Below, piece after piece: positions 53,460 to 64,000 of a stretch of 64,000 bases of DNA. Both the position numbers and the translations under genes were made by a program. Origin of the DNA: Patescibacteria group bacterium. Lineage in GTDB: Bacteria; Patescibacteriota; Dojkabacteria; J137. Numbering within the stretch: position 1 is the stretch's first letter; every line of letters starts with the position of its first letter. The DNA lies in the NCBI GenBank assembly GCA_016861265.1, contig BOLA01000001.1, forward strand, positions 934,150-998,149. Reading direction: 5' to 3'. The notes beneath the pieces were generated by a model. That model was given only the letters and a program-made list of their open reading frames with translations, was not told the origin of the DNA and did not search any database.

Positions 53460-53593
53460 ATTAATTATTTAATAAGTATTATAAGCAATTAATTGCGCAT
53501 ATTATTTGCTTTTTTAATATTTGAATTCTATAATTCATTGTGTAAGTTTGTAAAGTACGCACTTTTTAATTATATAGTGTTAAAAAAGATACT

Positions 53594-53923
53594 ATGGCGA
53601 AGGAATGTGAGAGTAAAAATCCTGTGAATGTAACTCTTAAGGTTATTGGAGGTAAGTGGAAACCATTATTAATGTGGCTAATTGCTCAAGAAACAATGCG
53701 TTTTAATGAGCTTCAAAAATCTATGCCTGGAGTAACTCAAAAAATGCTTACTCAGCAGTTACGGGAACTAGAGTCAGATGGATTAGTTCAAAGAACTGTT
53801 TATCCGGTTGTACCACCTAAGGTTGAATATTCCTTAACAGAATACGGAAAAACACTTGAGCCCGTATTAAAAGCTATGGCAACGTGGGGTAATTCACACA
53901 AGTCTCGTTTAAACGCTGAATAA
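53594..53923 (+). CDS. HxlR-family winged-helix regulator
   Basis: IGGKWK, RFNEL, QKMLTQQLRELE.DGLV.R.VYP.VPPKVEYSLT. Confidence 0.95.
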   Translation: MAKECESKNPVNVTLKVIGGKWKPLLMWLIAQETMRFNELQKSMPGVTQKMLTQQLRELESDGLVQRTVYPVVPPKVEYSLTEYGKTLEPVLKAMATWGNSHKSRLNAE

Positions 53924-54156
53924 TTAACACTATATTGATTATATACATCGAATAATATACGTGTTATAATTTAAGGTTACTTTTCTTCTAGCCTATTTTA
54001 GGTTTTGTAGTGACTGATAAAAGAAGGAAGGTTAAAGTTTTGATTCTAATATCAGTGTAAACAAAATTTAATAGGGTTTTAATGGGATTTCCCCCTGCCT
54101 ATATTATATTTACAATAGTCTAGATTCAGACGTGTATAATTTTTTATTCTATTATT

Positions 54157-55656
54157 TTGAATAATAAGAGAAATTTTAAGAGATCCAGATTCGATAGAAC
54201 ATATAAGGACTCTTCTGCTCCTAGAAACTCGAGCAGTAACAAAAGAGATTCAACAAATTATTTAGGAGATGTAACTTACTCATCTTCACGAAGAGCTAAG
54301 CCTGCTTTTGATAAAAAGAGCCGAGGTTCTGATTCCAGGCCTTATAGAGGAGGAACTTCAAGTTATGCTGTAAACAGATCAGAAAATACTCAAAAGGAGA
54401 GTTTTAACTCTAATCCTTCGAGAATTGATAGATCTTTAAACAGAGATAGATACCCTAGATCTAACGGTAGATTCGGTGAATCGAGAGGAAGATTTGGAGG
54501 TAACAGACCTGTAAGACCATACGGAAGAGGTAGAATGGATAATAAGAACTTAGATGAGATTATTAGATTTATTAAGTCTTCAGTAAACAAGCCAAAAGCT
54601 ATAGAAGTTAAAGAGGAAGAAAAATTTGTAGGTGAAATTCAAGATGTAGTTACAGAGAAAGCTTTATTAAAGAACTTATTAAATAAGGGCTTTACAAAGA
54701 CTACACCTATTCAAGCAAAGGCTATTCCTGTAATTAGAGAAGGAAAAGATATTCTAGGTTTAGCAAATACTGGAACTGGTAAAACAGCAGCATACTTAAT
54801 TCCATTAATAGAAGAAACTCTTAAAAAGAGAACTAAGACTCTAATTTTGGTTCCAACAAGAGAATTAGCTATTCAGATTAAGAATGAAATTTATCTATTT
54901 ACAAAGGATATGCCAATAAGATCAGAGATTATTATTGGTGGAGCCGACATGTATAGGCAAATTCAAAATCTAAGAAGAAATCCTGACTTTGTTGTAGGTA
55001 CACCAGGTAGAATTAAGGACCAGAAGCAAAGAGGCAACATTGTAATAAGTAATTACGACAATATTGTTTTAGATGAAGCAGATAGAATGCTTGATATGGG
55101 TTTTATTACAGAAATTAAAGATTTACTAAAAGAAAGAAAGGCAGATGTTCAAAGTTTATTCTTTAGTGCAACTATGGATAAAAAGGTTGCTCTATTAATT
55201 AATGAATTCTGTAAAGCATATTCTACAATTGAAATTAGCCAACAGAAAGTTACTGATTTAATTGATCAGAAGATTGTTACTTTTAAAGATGACGAAGCAA
55301 AAATGGAGAAAGTTGAAGAACTTTTAGGTAATTTTGACAAGTCAATTATCTTTGTAAATACAAAACATAGAGCTGATAAGTTAATGAAACATTTAAACGA
55401 AAAAGGCTTTAGAACAGACGCTTTACACGGAGATAAAAGTCAGAATTTAAGACAGAGAATCATGAGAAATTATAAAGACAATAGATTTGACCACCTAATT
55501 GCAACAGATGTTGCAGCAAGAGGAATAGATGTAAAAGATGTTTCTCACGTTTTGAATTACGATGTCCCAGCTACTGTAGAAGATTATATTCACAGAGTAG
55601 GTAGAACCGGAAGAGCCGGAAAAGTCGGAATAGCAGTAACGCTAATTAGAGAATAA
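54157..55656 (+). CDS. DEAD-box RNA helicase with R/G/S-rich N-terminal extension
   Basis: TPIQ, TGTGKT, PTRELA, TPGR, DEAD, SAT, TDVAARGID, HRVGRTGR. Confidence 0.96.
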   Translation: MNNKRNFKRSRFDRTYKDSSAPRNSSSNKRDSTNYLGDVTYSSSRRAKPAFDKKSRGSDSRPYRGGTSSYAVNRSENTQKESFNSNPSRIDRSLNRDRYPRSNGRFGESRGRFGGNRPVRPYGRGRMDNKNLDEIIRFIKSSVNKPKAIEVKEEEKFVGEIQDVVTEKALLKNLLNKGFTKTTPIQAKAIPVIREGKDILGLANTGTGKTAAYLIPLIEETLKKRTKTLILVPTRELAIQIKNEIYLFTKDMPIRSEIIIGGADMYRQIQNLRRNPDFVVGTPGRIKDQKQRGNIVISNYDNIVLDEADRMLDMGFITEIKDLLKERKADVQSLFFSATMDKKVALLINEFCKAYSTIEISQQKVTDLIDQKIVTFKDDEAKMEKVEELLGNFDKSIIFVNTKHRADKLMKHLNEKGFRTDALHGDKSQNLRQRIMRNYKDNRFDHLIATDVAARGIDVKDVSHVLNYDVPATVEDYIHRVGRTGRAGKVGIAVTLIRE

Positions 55657-55659
55657 ATT

Positions 55660-55684
55660 AAAACCCGCGAAAGCGGGTTTTTTT
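55660..55684 (+). terminator. Rho-independent terminator
   Basis: AAAACCCGC-GAAA-GCGGGTTTTTTT. Confidence 0.85.
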
Positions 55685-55730
55685 GTGCCTGTTATAATTA
55701 GTTAAGCCAAGTTAAGGAGGAATAGAACAA

Positions 55731-56141
55731 ATGAGTCTGCTGACAGTTAATTACAGCGGTTCTGCTATGGCTCAAGCGCTTCCCAAGCCAGTGGGTCATG
55801 GCAATCCTCGGATAATGCTTTCCGAGTTTGGTAGTGAGGTGGAAACCGAGCTGATCAAGGCGCTGGGAAATCAGACCATTCTTCCTGTGGGCATTATAGG
55901 TACTAGTGGCGCACAGCCGTTTGGTGTAAATGCCCGCAATCGTGGAAGTGTTGAATTGCTTTTGGAACTGATTTCCCCTGTGGAGCTAGATTCCGAGGGT
56001 GTTCATGAACTTGCCGTTATCATGAGGCGTGCTGTATTGGACCTATTCAATACGCCACGTTATCAGGGCGGCAGTTATGAGCAGCTCGAGGTTCTGTCTA
56101 TGGTGGTTGTTCACAGGGGTGTATTAGTTTCTAAAGGCTGA
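55731..56141 (+). CDS. GC-richer orphan protein, probable paralog of 58496-58927
   Basis: TGnTATAAT at 55690-55698, AAGGAGG SD, palindrome TGCGGGAACTGC-AA-GCAGTTCCCGCA at 56158-56183. Confidence 0.75.
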   Translation: MSLLTVNYSGSAMAQALPKPVGHGNPRIMLSEFGSEVETELIKALGNQTILPVGIIGTSGAQPFGVNARNRGSVELLLELISPVELDSEGVHELAVIMRRAVLDLFNTPRYQGGSYEQLEVLSMVVVHRGVLVSKG

Positions 56142-56249
56142 CAACCAACGAGCTTGGTGCGGGAACTGCAAGCAGTTCCCGCATAAGTAACTACATATAG
56201 TTTTAATTGATTCCTGAAATTGTTTTTGTTGAAATTTGTATAGAAAGTT

Positions 56250-56705
56250 CGTGGAGTACTTTCTGTCAGGTGCATGGGTAATGCACTTTGAAATTCGGCT
56301 ACCGGCCTTATTCGACATAAGTACTCCATAGGTATAAAGCTGTATCTTCCCCTCTTCGGAGGAAAGGCAAATCAATTAAGGCATCAGGGGGCTTTCCCTT
56401 ACATCCAGATTCGCCGAGCGCAGACTCTTTTGCTTTATACATCAGCATAGTGACCGAAGTCATTCTATGCAAGGCAGCATCGGGCTTACACAAAGTATTC
56501 ACCCAGTAAGAGGCTTTGTCCTGCCTTCTTCCGGTAAGTTGTGTATGAGGTGTATTGTTAGCCACACATTTATCTCAAGCGCCGCACAATGCTCCGTTTT
56601 AAAGTTGCTCCCCAAACCTGTGGGGACCGTACTCTAGTCCTTATCTCCAGAATTTAATCATTGGAGCCCTTAAAGGGGTCTGCAACTTCGCGACTAAAGT
56701 AGACG
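56250..56705 (-). ncRNA. Large multi-domain structured RNA, family not recognised
   Basis: GC-richer intergenic block with more than 10 nested stems; G-U pairs favour the minus strand. Confidence 0.65.
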
Positions 56706-56902
56706 ATTAAGATATTAACATATACTTTTAATATTCCAAACATAAATTCTATAATATTTATAGACCATGAAAGTTTCTTAAAAATGCAAACTATGTATTA
56801 AAAAATATGAGCCGGTATGTAAGTTAATTGTAAATTCTAGGTCAAATATATAACCCTCGTCTCAATTAAATAGTAGAATAAATTATTATTACATTTTTTA
56901 AT

Positions 56903-57412
56903 ATGAATAAAATTAAAAACATATTACTTAGTGCGGGAATTATTGCATTTACCGGGCTATTCTTTACGTTAAATATTAGTGCCCAATCAAGTGCAAGTGA
57001 ACAAATTCAACAGGCTCGTTGTAGTCGAATTACTGCAAGAATTGATGCTCAAATAGAATCATATAATTTAACTAAAGATAAGTACATTAATATTTATACG
57101 AGTGTGGGTGATGCCGTAAGTATTAGATTAGACAATCTAGAAAACAAAGGAGTTGATGTTGCACTATTAAGAACAGATCTGCAGGCGTTAAGTAGTTTAA
57201 ACGCAGAACTGGGAAGTTCATACGATCAATTTATAGCGGAATTAACTAAAGCTAAAGAATTTGGTTGCGGTACAAGTGAGAGTGAATTTACCCAACAATT
57301 GCAATTAGCAAGGCAACAGCTTTTAGTTGTAAAGCAAAAGGCACTTGATGTTAAAGAATATATATTCAATACTCTAAGACCGGATCTTAAGAATTTAAAA
57401 ACTACTATTTAA
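56903..57412 (+). CDS. Secreted helical hypothetical protein
   Basis: Signal peptide, two Cys, helical-bundle pattern. Confidence 0.75.
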   Translation: MNKIKNILLSAGIIAFTGLFFTLNISAQSSASEQIQQARCSRITARIDAQIESYNLTKDKYINIYTSVGDAVSIRLDNLENKGVDVALLRTDLQALSSLNAELGSSYDQFIAELTKAKEFGCGTSESEFTQQLQLARQQLLVVKQKALDVKEYIFNTLRPDLKNLKTTI

Positions 57413-57421
57413 ATTAATAAT

Positions 57422-57727
57422 ATGAATAAAAATAATTTACTAATAATTGTTGTAGGTGTTTTATTAATAATAGTTGTGGCAGCAGGTGCAATTTTATTAA
57501 ATAGACAAAATACAGTTATCAATAACTCAACAGATAACAATAATACTGCTCAGTTACAGACAACTACTCCAGATCCAGATATTTCAAATGATCCTGAAAA
57601 AATAAGAGGTAAATTCGAAAGTGAGATTAATTTTGAAGTAGATTCTGCTGTATCAAATATTGATTACTTGCTTACACAGGTTAATCCTGATTCAGATTTC
57701 TCAGATTTAGAAAATATTGATTATTGA
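57422..57727 (+). CDS. Membrane-anchored hypothetical protein
   Basis: N-terminal TM, N/T-rich linker, acidic tail. Confidence 0.7.
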   Translation: MNKNNLLIIVVGVLLIIVVAAGAILLNRQNTVINNSTDNNNTAQLQTTTPDPDISNDPEKIRGKFESEINFEVDSAVSNIDYLLTQVNPDSDFSDLENIDY

Positions 57728-58386
57728 TAGTGAGATAAATATTCTATTACATCATCAAAGCTATTAGCAATAAAATCAGCTTTATCGCATACACTTTTTC
57801 GACATACGTTTTCGGTAAATGCTACAAATCTATGTGCAGCCCCTTGTTCTTTTATTTGGTAATCGGTAAATCCATCTCCCACAATTATTATTTCTCCGAA
57901 TAAGTTTAGGTTATTAACAACTTTAACCTTTCCCAGCTCCTGGGCAAGCAGGTTTTCTTCTACAATTCCTGCACATGTTCTATTTTGGTCAAACACGAAT
58001 TCATTTGCGTAAATATTGTGAGAGTTTAGTTTAAATTGCTCTAATGCCGGAATAATAAAATCCTTAAATCCCCCACTAATAATTATCACTTGATTAGATA
58101 TCTCTTCAAAATACTTTATGTTTTTGATAAAGGATTCTGTAAAATTCTGCTTTAAGACTTCTACAAGTTGCATTAATTCGTCTCTATTGAATTTTAGAAG
58201 TTCCATTCTCATTTTTAATGATTCGGGAAATGTTATTTGTCCCTGCATCCCTAGCTCGGTAATTGCCTTAATTTTTTGAGAAGTTTCGGAAGAGTTATTT
58301 CGAACGTCTACAATCCTAGCCAGTTCATCTAAGGCTTCCAATTTATTAATTGTAGAATCAAAATCTATAATTATGTAAGGAGTCAT
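57721..58386 (-). CDS. HAD-IB phosphatase (phosphoserine phosphatase-like)
   Basis: DFDST, ISGGF, K, VGDGFTD. Confidence 0.88.
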   Translation of the reverse strand: MTPYIIIDFDSTINKLEALDELARIVDVRNNSSETSQKIKAITELGMQGQITFPESLKMRMELLKFNRDELMQLVEVLKQNFTESFIKNIKYFEEISNQVIIISGGFKDFIIPALEQFKLNSHNIYANEFVFDQNRTCAGIVEENLLAQELGKVKVVNNLNLFGEIIIVGDGFTDYQIKEQGAAHRFVAFTENVCRKSVCDKADFIANSFDDVIEYLSHYQ

Positions 58387-58495
58387 TAGTATTGATAAAA
58401 ACAACTCTTTCAGAATACCATATACTTTTAGAGTTATACAATAGATATATATTGTTGTGATATAATCATTCCATCGCACATTAAGGAGGTTCTAA

Positions 58496-58927
58496 ATGCC
58501 AGTAGTAAGTGGTTTGTGGGATCAAGGACGAGTGTTCGCAGCACTCACTTGTAATCCCGAAGAGCAGCATACACAAGCCGAGGCACTAATGCTTGAGTTG
58601 TTTGAGGCAGCGCAAGCTGTTCTAGTCAAGCAACTTGAGGTTGTGCCGACGGGTATTGTGTTCTTCTGCGAGAAGCAGCCGATGCTCACCATAAATTCGT
58701 TCCCGCTGGAATTCGCCATTCGCAGCACTAAAAGCAAGGAATGGGGAAACAGGGATGATCAGCAAGAGATTATCCGAAAAGTCCTCAAGCGAATGCGGAA
58801 GGTGCTTAGGGCGTGGACTGAAGCCAAAAGGGCTAACTTTAGCGGTTGGCAGATTGGCATGGAGCTCAGCTTTATCGAGCTGTTCGCTACCAGCGAGGCG
58901 GTGGAAGAAGAAGCTGCTACGGAATAA
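58496..58927 (+). CDS. GC-richer orphan protein, possible tautomerase/MIF fold (Pro-1)
   Basis: TGnTATAAT at 58458-58466, AAGGAGGT SD, hairpin at 58938-58966; begins M-P-V-V. Confidence 0.75.
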   Translation: MPVVSGLWDQGRVFAALTCNPEEQHTQAEALMLELFEAAQAVLVKQLEVVPTGIVFFCEKQPMLTINSFPLEFAIRSTKSKEWGNRDDQQEIIRKVLKRMRKVLRAWTEAKRANFSGWQIGMELSFIELFATSEAVEEEAATE

Positions 58928-58971
58928 CCGTGCGACCGAGGGGAGCGGAAAGCAAACGTTCCTCTCCAAAT

Positions 58972-59475
58972 TTATGCTTCTAGAGTTTCTTCTAGCATGT
59001 AGCTGCCTAAATTCATTTGTATCGAATAGTTATTAAGAACTTCGAGTGCTGTAAAATATGGCTGTGAATAATCGATTCCATTGCGTCTGCTGTCTTTTAT
59101 AAGAAATTGAAAGAATATTCTAGATAGTTGGTACATTGATTGTTGTGTTACTACAATCCTGTATTCCTCCGCTTTAAGATCGTCACTTGTGTAATAGGGG
59201 CCATTATAGTTAGGAATTTCTGCGTAAATATTGTTTTCTTCTATGCATTCTAATAGAAATCGAATGTGTTCCATAATTTCTGCAATTAAATCAATTGCCC
59301 TACTCTGAGGATTAGATTCGGAAAATTGTGTATTTAAGTGGTTTGGTCCAAAGATACCGGCAACAATTCCTATTAATTCGGCTTCCATTCTTACAATTGT
59401 AGCAGTGTTTAATGAATATTCCGGCGATGAAGGGGTACGTTTAAACCCAAGAAGATTGAGTACACTCATTAGCAA
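58972..59475 (-). CDS. Hypothetical protein
   Basis: 167-aa ORF, no recognised motif. Confidence 0.55.
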   Translation of the reverse strand: MLMSVLNLLGFKRTPSSPEYSLNTATIVRMEAELIGIVAGIFGPNHLNTQFSESNPQSRAIDLIAEIMEHIRFLLECIEENNIYAEIPNYNGPYYTSDDLKAEEYRIVVTQQSMYQLSRIFFQFLIKDSRRNGIDYSQPYFTALEVLNNYSIQMNLGSYMLEETLEA

Positions 59476-59539
59476 AATTTAACAAACAGGTTCAAAGGCA
59501 CTGTAGCAGAATATGTTTTGTTATGGAACCCTAAAAATA

Positions 59540-60493: not shown

Positions 60494-60763
60494 CTATTGA
60501 CCGGTCAGGCGGGTGAAAAGATCCCCGTATTCCGCAGGGTTGGGTTCGTTGGTGGACTTTTCGGTGGACGAAGTTGCAGGGCGATCAGTGAGTTCGCCAC
60601 TTGCCCTAGCATCCTCACGTGCCTGATGCCACGCTTCCGAAACTTCCTTCCCGGATGAGTTTGTCCCCTTCATTGCATCGACTTTGTCGTACTTATTACC
60701 GGGGACATATCCTGCATCACGCAGTACCTTTTCGTCCGAATCTTTACCTTTCGGGTCTGCCAT
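60494..60763 (-). CDS. GC-richer hydrophilic orphan protein
   Basis: GGAGGT SD; bulged palindrome at 60457-60488. Confidence 0.75.
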   Translation of the reverse strand: MADPKGKDSDEKVLRDAGYVPGNKYDKVDAMKGTNSSGKEVSEAWHQAREDARASGELTDRPATSSTEKSTNEPNPAEYGDLFTRLTGQ

Positions 60764-61602: not shown

Positions 61603-62088
61603 TTATATATTACTTATAATACTCTTGACCTCCTCGGCTCCATCTGTTTTTAACCAGGATATTACATTAAAAAATTCTTCCATTGTAAAGAAGTTGACGT
61701 ACTTAATTTTATCGTCTTCTTTTTCGGTATCTCTTTCGTGAGGAGCTAAATTGTATTCGCTACTATTCTTATTTAGTTTTAGTAAAAATCTTAATTGAAG
61801 GTAAGTTTGATTATCTTCAATTACAGTATAGTAACCTACAAATTGAATATCTTTTATGTCTGATTCTGTTAATTCAATTCCTGTTTCTTCGTACATTTCT
61901 CGAATTATTGTTTGATTAATACTCTCCCCTTTTTCTGGATGACCACCTGGTTGATGATACTTTTGATTACCTTTAGCTACTAATACATACTTGTTGTCTA
62001 AAGATAAAGCCCAGATGTATACTTGGCGGATTTCTACGTTTAGTTGAAGGTCTAATATGTTGTGGGAGATGGTGTAGGTTGAGGACAT
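61603..62088 (-). CDS. Nudix hydrolase
   Basis: PGGHPEKGESINQTIIREMYEETGI Nudix box. Confidence 0.92.
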   Translation of the reverse strand: MSSTYTISHNILDLQLNVEIRQVYIWALSLDNKYVLVAKGNQKYHQPGGHPEKGESINQTIIREMYEETGIELTESDIKDIQFVGYYTVIEDNQTYLQLRFLLKLNKNSSEYNLAPHERDTEKEDDKIKYVNFFTMEEFFNVISWLKTDGAEEVKSIISNI

Positions 62089-62099
62089 TTAAGCTTTAA

Positions 62100-62513
62100 T
62101 TAAAAAAAGTTAGTTGAAGTTATTACAGTTACATTGTAATCCTTAAAAGTAGTATTCAGAAATATTGTCAAATTCCTATCATCTGATATTACCACAATAG
62201 GATCGATACCTAAGCTTAACTGCTCATTATTAATAAGAGTTTTTACTAATGCTAGAAGCGAAACATCTCCAAGTCCACGTTGTTTAGACAAAGAGAAGTG
62301 TGGATATGTATTTAGAAAAAATTTAAAACTCTCAAGATAGTTTTTAAGATCAAAATCCTCCTTTGAGGTCGCGTCAATGAAATTCGAACTCAAATTCATT
62401 AATGCTTTTACTTCAAATTCTTCTCTAACCTCTGGAGTTATAAAGCAATCTTCAGAGTAATTAATTTTATTACTTTCTAAATATATTAAACCAGTATTAT
62501 CTATTATTGTCAT
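62100..62513 (-). CDS. PIN-domain protein
   Basis: IIDN, ITPEVREE, GDVSLLAL and VISDDR acidic motifs. Confidence 0.75.
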   Translation of the reverse strand: MTIIDNTGLIYLESNKINYSEDCFITPEVREEFEVKALMNLSSNFIDATSKEDFDLKNYLESFKFFLNTYPHFSLSKQRGLGDVSLLALVKTLINNEQLSLGIDPIVVISDDRNLTIFLNTTFKDYNVTVITSTNFF

Positions 62514-63709
62514 AAGTTATTACTGCTTATATACTCTTTAAAGCCTTTTTTATTTATTCGACCAAACAGTAGGTATTGAGCTTGAATATTACTGAGTGAT
62601 TTATTCTTAAGAGCATCATTAATACCTTCAACTGTTTTACTTCCATTAAATTTTCTAATCGAATAGTTAATTGGTTGGGACCGACCGTTTTGGGGAGTAA
62701 GTATTTTGGCAATCTCTGGTTGCAGATTTAAAAATTCTTCTTGAGTTATTACTCCCCTTTTTCTTAGAATCACTATTACAGCAGTGGCTGTTAATTTATA
62801 AGACTTTGCTAATTCATCTCTTATGTCTTTAGTTATAGAAATTCCAATAAATTTATTTGTAATCTCTATTGGTAAAAGAAATTCACCTACTATATCATGT
62901 ATGAAGTTTTCTTCCTTTGTTGAGGATAATGCTTCAGCTGTTAAATCTCTTTTGATTAAGTAGTCATAACTGTCTAAGCCTATTAATACTAATAGATAGA
63001 TAAGTGTATAAATTTGCCTACCTTCTCGTTCGTTAGGATTTAATTCACTAGGTAAAAAAATAAAAGGTATAATTTCATCTTTTAATACAAACCCACTAGT
63101 ATTTCTATAAATTTCTTTACAGCTATTTATAATAGGTAAGATTTTATTGTTATCAAAAACTCCTTGGCATACATTGATGTTTTTATTTTCGATTAATCTT
63201 ATTAAGTAATATAAGGCATTCTTCTTATTTAGGCGCTTAAATTCACTTGTCGAAAATTCAAAATATTTTTTTATTTCATCAGCTGCTTTTAGCTCAGTTT
63301 TATTTTTAAGTAAACCTATAAACCTATTTTTGAGTTCATCTGAGTTTTCTGATAGAAAGTTTTGACAACGTATTAACCTATCTATAATTCTTTTTGAAGT
63401 TATTTCTCCTTCGCCAAGTCTCTTTGAAAAAAAAGTTGGTGTTAGTTTAACCTTTCTTAATTCTTCTATTCTCAATAATTCCTTTTCAAGTAAAGAAGGT
63501 GTTAATAAAAAATAATACCATGGAATTAATATTTTATTACATTCATTTATTAAATCATTATAATCGATTCTATTTTCTTGCAATGCACTTGCCAAAATGG
63601 GTCTTTGCTCTAAATTTTCTTCCGGATATAGATTTAATATTTTATGAAAAACATCTAGATCAATATTCGTAGCTTTAGTTCGTTTTACTTGTAACTCAAT
63701 TGTACTCAT
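62510..63709 (-). CDS. XRE-HTH plus ImmA/IrrE-like protein lacking the HExxH motif
   Basis: IPWYYFLL, SGFVL.D...PFIFL, RQIYTLIYLLVLI (in place of FTLxHExxH), E......GEFLLP, LA..YKLT..AV...L...G.I. Confidence 0.65.
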   Translation of the reverse strand: MSTIELQVKRTKATNIDLDVFHKILNLYPEENLEQRPILASALQENRIDYNDLINECNKILIPWYYFLLTPSLLEKELLRIEELRKVKLTPTFFSKRLGEGEITSKRIIDRLIRCQNFLSENSDELKNRFIGLLKNKTELKAADEIKKYFEFSTSEFKRLNKKNALYYLIRLIENKNINVCQGVFDNNKILPIINSCKEIYRNTSGFVLKDEIIPFIFLPSELNPNEREGRQIYTLIYLLVLIGLDSYDYLIKRDLTAEALSSTKEENFIHDIVGEFLLPIEITNKFIGISITKDIRDELAKSYKLTATAVIVILRKRGVITQEEFLNLQPEIAKILTPQNGRSQPINYSIRKFNGSKTVEGINDALKNKSLSNIQAQYLLFGRINKKGFKEYISSNNL

Positions 63710-64000
63710 TGAAATATATATAACAACCTTTCACCCCTCTAGTCATAAGCGTCCTATAGGTGTTTTTTATAATTGCATCTGCCTTTTGTTTTGCAAGTTC
63801 AGGATTTTCTTTTAACAATTTTTTATAACCTTTAATTGAAGCATCCATTTTTGACCTTTTAATAGGGTCTGTAATGACTTCTCCATTTTCTATTCTTAGA
63901 TCAGGTCCAATAATTACTCCTATATAATCTAATTCAAGCCCTTGGCAAGTATGTATACAACCTACTTCGTTAACTGATGTAGGGTACACGCTCCACAGTC
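63696..64000 (-). CDS. DUF2075 (Schlafen group 3 helicase-like) C-terminal part, runs off the window
   Basis: VGCIHTCQGLELDYIGVIIGPDL...IKNTYRTLMTRG.KGCYIY. Confidence 0.85.
   Translation of the reverse strand, partial: LWSVYPTSVNEVGCIHTCQGLELDYIGVIIGPDLRIENGEVITDPIKRSKMDASIKGYKKLLKENPELAKQKADAIIKNTYRTLMTRGVKGCYIYFNEYN

Follow-up and report, generated by a model that had tools for sequence, protein, structure and literature searches.

A structured non-coding element was confirmed in the window (the whole 64,000-nt stretch of DNA analyzed here), and it is likely to be a rare, ornate RNA of about 455 nt that stands outside Rfam and carries a variant of the raiA core. In the reading that we prefer, with middling confidence, it is a stand-alone, structurally conserved RNA gene whose first 125–160 bases would fold into a raiA-type pseudoknotted core. 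The source genome (G000) measures 1.18 Mb (34% GC, three contigs, 96% complete), and the element and its surroundings are arranged as follows.

54157..55656, plus strand: DEAD-box helicase gene upstream of the 136-aa ORF, the synteny anchor common to genomes G003 and G002
55731..56141, plus strand: convergent orphan ORF of 136 aa (50% GC) with a strong ribosome-binding site (ORF list)
56159..56182: perfect 11-bp hairpin in the sequence between the 3′ end of the RNA and the convergent orphan ORF, likely the terminator of that 136-aa ORF
56252..56705, minus strand: structured non-coding RNA gene of about 455 nt, its ends placed by a promoter-like site and by the last stem
56712..56720, minus strand: possible extended −10 element TGTTAATAT, putatively assigned (four of six letters of TATAAT, with a preceding TG)
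56903–57412, plus strand: orphan ORF of 169 aa on the other side of the 761-bp gap (ORF list)

The element is single-copy in G000 and occupies the 761-bp gap between the two orphan ORFs, with a GC content of 45–48% vs. 22–34% on the upstream side. We infer the strand, ends and promoter of the 56252–56705 RNA from sequence features; the promoter proposed in an earlier note on this DNA does have its letters (TGTTAATAT) at 56720–56712, but they are too weak to be listed by a sigma-70 consensus promoter scan. The view that no credible coding sequence is present was borne out, as the longest ORFs within the element (72–85 aa) are without support and its homolog in G003, a genome of the same genus, has stop codons in all three sense frames. 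No prophage or tRNA island encloses the element in the window neighborhood that was checked. Small GC-rich orphan ORFs (50–54% in a genome of 34% GC) lie at 55731–56141, 58496–58927 and 60494–60763, with their own ribosome-binding sites and hairpins; two of them occur in low-depth RNA contigs, and similar cassettes are common in G000 and G002. The 136-aa ORF (55731–56141) had no relatives in 5.8 billion proteins, and none were found for the flanking orphan proteins. At 61603–63989 of the window, on the minus strand, a NUDIX gene, two proteins (137 and 399 aa) for which Pfam gave nothing and the last part of one more gene leave an impression, and just that, of a defence or toxin-antitoxin-type island.

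The element was searched with cmscan against all 4,227 Rfam families, a check suggested at the outset, which returned no family at the gathering threshold and only two chance hits at E ≤ 10. This agrees with the initial judgement that the RNA is not a tmRNA, RNase P RNA, SRP RNA or group I or II intron, none of whose models hit the locus at E ≤ 10. The true genes for RNase P RNA (C1:232548–233011, 141 bits) and tmRNA (C1:641705–642156, 64 bits) were located elsewhere in the genome, and the element matched tmRNA neither with Rfam nor with ARAGORN, the latter missing the G000 tmRNA found by Rfam. ROOL, GOLLD, OLE and HEARO had no covariance-model match at the locus, nor did any SRP model. In the whole of G000, no 6S RNA match in Rfam, no large SRP RNA (RF01854), no Ffh and no KhpA/B-type KH protein were found, and the fold of the element is not 6S-like. 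The lack of Ffh, together with the small size of G000 and of genomes throughout its phylum, points to a member of the Patescibacteria (CPR). Letters recalling SRP RNA (CCGGAAGAAGGCAG) have no stem beneath them, and those recalling group I introns (GACUA/UAGUC) stand in the wrong order. Circularly permuted group II RNAs, which in the available text of PMC8637638 are about 900 nt long and contain D5–D6, were rejected for an element of ~455 nt with no intron model hit and no joints in RNA contigs.

Outside the raiA-like features listed further below, the minus-strand structure was divided into four parts.

56602..56701, minus strand: competing 5′ fold, with TACTTTAGTC/GACTAGAGTA (56701–692/56639–630) and AAGTTGC/GCAACTT (56688–682/56608–602)
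56445..56527, minus strand: middle arms AAGGCAG/CTGCCTT (with CTTAC/GTAAG) and GCATAG..TGAC-TTCG-GTCA..CTATGC
56332..56440, minus strand: best-conserved domain, with closing stem GTATAAAGC/GCTTTATAC, junction motif GCAAAAGA(G/T)TCTG, stem GGCGAATC/GATTTGCC with an inner arm, and a CCTC-CGAA-GAGG hairpin
56252..56328, minus strand: 3′ three-way junction closed by TGGAGTACTT/AAGTACTCCA (from folding)

Every stem named in the earlier note is present on the minus strand, by direct reading and in a script-made list: AAGTTGC/GCAACTT (56688–82/56608–02), CTCCA/TGGAG and TCCCCA/TGGGGA; AAGGCAG/CTGCCTT (56527–21/56477–71), CTTAC/GTAAG and GCATAG/CTATGC with TGAC-TTCG-GTCA; GTATAAAGC/GCTTTATAC (56440–32/56340–32), GGCGAATC/GATTTGCC and TTTCCTC/GAGGGGA; TGGAGTACTT/AAGTACTCCA (56328–19/56261–52) and GTGCAT/ATGCAC. 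The layout built from these stems stood in part, in that they exist but, in the minimum-energy fold, TACTTTAGTC/GACTAGAGTA takes the place of the 5′ closing stem and a different arm that of AAGGCAG. In 56602..56701, TACTTTAGTC/GACTAGAGTA and AAGTTGC/GCAACTT cross each other, and three inner hairpins are found besides. Folding of the whole element gave z values of −3.48 (minus strand; 0 of 100 shuffles) and −1.98 (plus strand; 2 of 100). A 300-nt sub-window reached only −1.4 (14 shuffles), and 48 of 62 spacers tested in G000, the GC-richest without ORFs out of about 148, scored below this 300-nt part (RNase P: −3.5). Folding energy by itself does not set the element apart in G000; it stands above chance because of its covariation with a homolog and its presence in RNA libraries. 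Two spacers of the same genome (C1 578128–578533 and 877947–878305) have z values of about −9 and several long hairpins, with no tRNA.

The homolog in G003 was found via the helicase gene, as a GC-rich stretch one ORF downstream in the same orientation, with a folding z of −3.12. It is cut off by the contig end before the raiA-like 5′ part, and none of the other 91 contig ends of G003 continues it; for this reason, the covariation test reaches the middle and 3′ stems and not the raiA-like core. Plain sequence similarity between the two copies is marginal (z of 1.5–3.0 with three scoring schemes). When 41 pairs of stems predicted from the G000 sequence alone were followed through a sequence-only alignment with G003, 31 were kept, 12 of them by double-sided changes, values that none of 300 shuffled realignments reached (pairs kept 11.8 ± 3.9, maximum 22; double-sided 3.5 ± 2.0, maximum 10). 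The middle and 3′ stems are therefore conserved through compensating changes, and the covariation that the earlier note had asked about was found. In the middle arms, 5 of 7 and 7 of 10 pairs are kept and strain changes sit in loops; in the domain at 56332..56440, two inner helix sets keep 7 of 8 and 6 of 7 pairs, several by double-sided changes; and the three-way junction at 56252..56328 has a counterpart at the corresponding position of G003, the two not aligning in sequence. The unpaired conserved junction GCAAAAGA(G/T)TCTG is the best candidate for a contact surface in the new part; this 13-base motif is enriched in 63 of 221 genomes of the class, and each of 30 such loci that were inspected lay in coding sequence.

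Between helicase and RNA, G003 has an ORF that bears no relation to the one in G000 and runs the other way, so that the 136-aa ORF is not conserved beside the G003 homolog, and G003 has an orphan ORF on the same strand ~85 nt downstream of the RNA. As the two genomes have different downstream genes, which also point different ways, the element does not look like a leader, and since the downstream gene is not conserved, no cis target is apparent. Elsewhere in G003, at the end of C39 and the start of C20 (L409, L410), a GC-richer spacer ends in a strong terminator and has no Rfam hit at E ≤ 1.

Two of the four genomes of the genus contain the RNA, compared with none of the 28 other genomes of the order. 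G002 (same genus, 95% complete) has the helicase gene, and nothing above noise was found for the RNA in its whole assembly. BLAST-type searches with the element were negative for 61 relatives, for 221 genomes of the class and 401 of the phylum, and for phages and plasmids, blanks that are weak because the true G003 homolog was missed too; 16 weak hits in the class were chance matches of 18–31 bases. A model made from the two sequences (R1; G000 and G003, 206 columns), which may miss distant members, recovered only these two among 32 order and 151 class genomes, and its hit in a further genome (G009) lay inside an rmuC-like ORF. Pattern scans of GTDB gave 0 hits in one case and 11 in the other (G003 and 10 unsupported), and those of metagenomes gave 51 hits, none supported, of which L218 and L242 have a eukaryote-like context. 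Eight viral scans (seven patterns, one protein) yielded no member: L463 is antisense to a terminase, and L462 is a true raiA RNA, a canonical copy at the very start of an IMG/VR contig (position 35 onward), which is probably host flank. With no third member found, the RNA appears rare and accessory; to judge by its divergence, it would be old enough to have changed under structural constraint, yet it is apparently rare and dispensable, and a ‘new class’ would at present consist of two species only. G000 has a second ORF-free block of ~600 nt on the minus strand (C1 ~904800–905400; L376:400–1000; z −8.9), with no Rfam hit, no match to R1 and no BLAST homolog in the 31 other order genomes beyond two short hits, and it is a candidate for another large ncRNA.

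A 1.2-kb stretch is contained in 20 of the 24 sequencing runs listed, six of which are RNA runs (wastewater, four studies) that hold 0.27–0.32 of its words. Four of these six, one per study and chosen for holding the stretch, were mapped on 53500–59500, and all four had a contig of 258–403 nt covering the element (56434–56691, 56377–56694, 56296–56680 and 56282–56683, with 0, 8, 0 and 0 other letters), although contigs from RNA libraries carry no strand, ends or level and DNA carry-over is possible. Contig depths on the element were 190.8, 11, 10.9 and 4.7, and those on two orphan ORFs 2.2–3.1 among the pieces listed, figures that cannot rank genes. The convergent orphan ORF was also found in RNA contigs, most of the flanking DNA had no such cover (the lack of which proves nothing), and the contigs of the four runs contained no joints. 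In run X16, 7 of 7 listed substitutions fall outside the stems of the earlier note, in a stretch that is 41% paired (chance 0.03–0.07). Two of the seven disrupt the arm that the minimum-energy fold offers instead, which favors the AAGGCAG/CTTAC arm, and the change at 56638 turns an A-U pair of TACTTTAGTC/GACTAGAGTA into G-U. The RNA-contig cover, the covariation with G003 and the lack of any family together uphold a large structured ncRNA outside Rfam.

For the comparison with raiA, a fetched true copy (L411), the Rfam consensus (RF03072) and the lengths in the available text of PMC12968392 were used. According to the latter, raiA P3 is built of P3a (4 pairs), a 2-by-4 internal loop, P3b (3 pairs) and a 7-nt loop; PK1 joins six of the seven P3b loop bases to a strand that has A-Y-G-G before it and a UUAGACGUAA linker after it; and P1, the A-rich bulge and the P3b G-C pairs are highly conserved. 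Two predicted features of the element correspond to these parts.

56678..56704, minus strand: predicted raiA P3-like hairpin, with GTCT/AGAC (4 bp), a 2-nt bulge AC, TTT/AAG (3 bp), a 7-nt loop A-GTCGCG and a 4-nt bulge TTGC
56562..56594, minus strand: predicted raiA PK-L-like strand GAGCATTG-TGCGGC, then linker-like TTGAGATAAA and P4′-like GTGTGG

The P3-like hairpin starts at the presumed 5′ end, and the first 27 bases match all raiA P3 stem and bulge lengths, with 7 of 7 pairs. Loop GTCGCG (56694–89) can pair with TGCGGC (56586–81) at 6 of 6 positions, two G-U included, and 12 of 14 letters in the PK-L-like region are identical to L411; the PK1 spacing is 54 nt in raiA and about 108–110 nt here. 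The initial likening to raiA, offered as weak, proved stronger than thought: scored with a raiA-derived descriptor, the site tops the 1,827 sites in 4.17 Mb that pass the geometry (27/44 letters, the next having 22), a rank that overstates the significance because the descriptor was designed with the motif already in view. The seven P3 pairs were complete in one of 50 chance matches to the motif, and P3 together with PK1 in none of them, whereas 2 of 2 true raiA copies have both. Among genomes of the class, 1 of 221 contains the P3 motif, and among those of the phylum, 3 of 401, but in the two others it comes without the pairs. CCCU after P3a and GUGG after the linker could form 3 of 4 P4 pairs (by eye), and PK2 would fit only with a one-base shift.

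The RNA is nevertheless not a member of the raiA family, and its core is raiA-like in geometry. The raiA model (RF03072, gathering 101.3 bits), with which the true copy scores 194.7 bits, had no hit at the locus at E ≤ 10. No helix resembling raiA P1 (5′/3′ ends, GU and GGU bulges) was seen in the helix list or folds, the loop-E P8 is missing, and UUGC and UUU/AAG stand where raiA has an A-rich P3 bulge (AAAG/AAAA) and a G-C-rich P3b. The raiA-like fold is ~8 kcal/mol less stable (−31.2 plus −7.2 vs. −46.8 for the computed minimum); true raiA P3 has a pairing probability of 0 in the same energy model, and a MAFFT alignment of the 5′ part with raiA misplaced P3. A search for KhpA/B-type KH proteins (PF13083) came up empty in G000 and the three other genomes of the genus; of 32 genomes of the order, five gave a score over the cut-off, and these belong without exception to the other family. 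As no such protein was found in G000, the partner of the RNA is probably not KhpA/B. In the available main text of PMC10861870, about 20 minimal raiA variants have P1, P3 and P4 only, the hosts of raiA are given as Bacillota and Actinomycetota, and Patescibacteria or candidate phyla do not appear. The chances that the core is homologous to that of raiA are about even.

The strongest competitor, a real possibility though short of an even chance, is an orphan structured RNA unrelated to raiA, in which TACTTTAGTC/GACTAGAGTA is crossed by AAGTTGC/GCAACTT to make another pseudoknot, the likeness to raiA is coincidental and the RNA is still a trans-acting accessory. It gains from the long helix TACTTTAGTC/GACTAGAGTA, which has a computed pairing probability of 0.98, a lower energy and the A-U to G-U change of X16 (56638) within it, as well as from the failure of the Rfam raiA model and the absence of P1 and the conserved A-rich bulge. 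It would, however, leave to coincidence the exact agreement with raiA in the lengths of seven segments, in seven pairs and in a six-pair pseudoknot, and a site standing alone, with its 27/44 letters, at the top of 1,827; moreover, the energies on which it draws come from nearest-neighbor folding, which misses P3 in real raiA too.

The patchy occurrence (2/4 genus genomes, 0/28 others of the order), a GC content above that of the host and the orphan ORFs on the flanks would suit an RNA belonging to, or left over from, a mobile element or ribozyme whose protein gene is gone (group I/II intron, circularly permuted group II, HEARO/omega RNA), an improbable origin given that the models of introns, HEARO and ribozymes have no hit at E ≤ 10, that the RNA contigs are without joints, that the genome holds a single copy and that no transposase or reverse transcriptase family occurs among 17 neighboring proteins; the same position in two diverged species also argues for inheritance. 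Very unlikely is a cis-acting leader or antisense regulator of a neighboring gene: the same-strand orphan ORF ~85 nt downstream in G003 and the convergent orphan ORF seen in RNA contigs of G000 invite such a role, but G000 has no same-strand gene downstream, G000 and G003 have unrelated, oppositely directed ORFs downstream, and the RNA does not overlap the convergent ORF. We give the lowest probability of all to a highly diverged housekeeping RNA (6S or SRP RNA), which could fill the place of the 6S and large SRP RNAs that had no match in G000; Ffh was not found there either, the size and multi-branch fold are unlike 6S RNA (a rod of about 190 nt with a central bubble), RNase P and tmRNA are accounted for elsewhere, and the RNA is absent from the same-genus G002, whose whole assembly was read.

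If the element is a stand-alone gene with a raiA-type core, it would be transcribed on the minus strand from the extended −10 site at 56720 to about 56252. The P3-like loop GTCGCG would pair with TGCGGC about 108–110 nt on (PK1), three hairpins would fill the place of the variable P5 of raiA, and ~290 nt of new multi-stem domains would replace P6–P8 and P1. By analogy with raiA, OLE and ROOL, the RNA may act in trans as a stable, compact and abundant molecule. It might bind a partner or keep it in store (a protein, the ribosome or a small ligand) while the cell grows slowly or survives without a host, and its gene would be accessory and dispensable. More tentatively, and at less than even chances, the raiA core may be a portable module that here, without the otherwise invariant P1, heads a 455-nt RNA with new domains; this would be the first RNA with a raiA fold from a host other than Bacillota or Actinomycetota, and one of the fast-evolving large ornate RNAs kept by ultra-small bacteria despite genome reduction.

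If true, a natural RNA that has the raiA core and lacks P1 and KhpA/B separates fold from function and allows a direct test. Even without the raiA link, a 1.2-Mb genome with a conserved ornate RNA of 455 bases, and ~600 bases more in a second, points to unexplored RNA biology in CPR bacteria, and RNA can be sampled in the organism's habitat (bioreactors and sludge). No such RNA in CPR bacteria was found in the published literature as covered by listings and the starts of abstracts, with subscription journals mostly outside this scope. The main text of the preprint 10.64898/2026.10.21.760802, as available, does not name raiA, CPR or Patescibacteria, and its database and supplements may hold the spacer.

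Among known systems, raiA RNA (ModT; RF03072) is the closest. It is highly abundant, acts in trans and has a sporulation/stationary-phase phenotype. Common to both are the P3a/P3b hairpin with its 2x4 internal loop and 7-nt loop, the six-pair PK1 with a GCAU-N-G-UGCGGY strand and a similar purine-rich linker after it, and an apparently stand-alone, single-copy gene. The differences are that raiA measures 113–253 nt vs. about 455 nt here; that P1 joins the ends in raiA and is lacking here; that the A-rich bulge is replaced by UUGC and P3b G-C pairs by U-A/U-G; that three hairpins hold the P5 position and 290 nt of 3′ domains are unrelated; that the hosts are Bacillota/Actinomycetota vs. a CPR-like host; and that the element is not beside raiA/comFC genes, KhpA/B, the reported partner of raiA, not having been found. 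The models of ROOL (RF03087), GOLLD (RF02032) and OLE (RF01071) do not match the element, which also lies outside prophages and tRNA islands, and ROOL and GOLLD form homo-oligomeric nanocages. In the available text of PMC12286853, ROOL is abundant yet non-essential, and raiA, OLE, ROOL and GOLLD are proposed to be compact trans-acting scaffolds or stores. With ROOL, GOLLD and OLE, the element shares the character of a large, multi-domain, non-coding RNA whose function is unknown or emerging.
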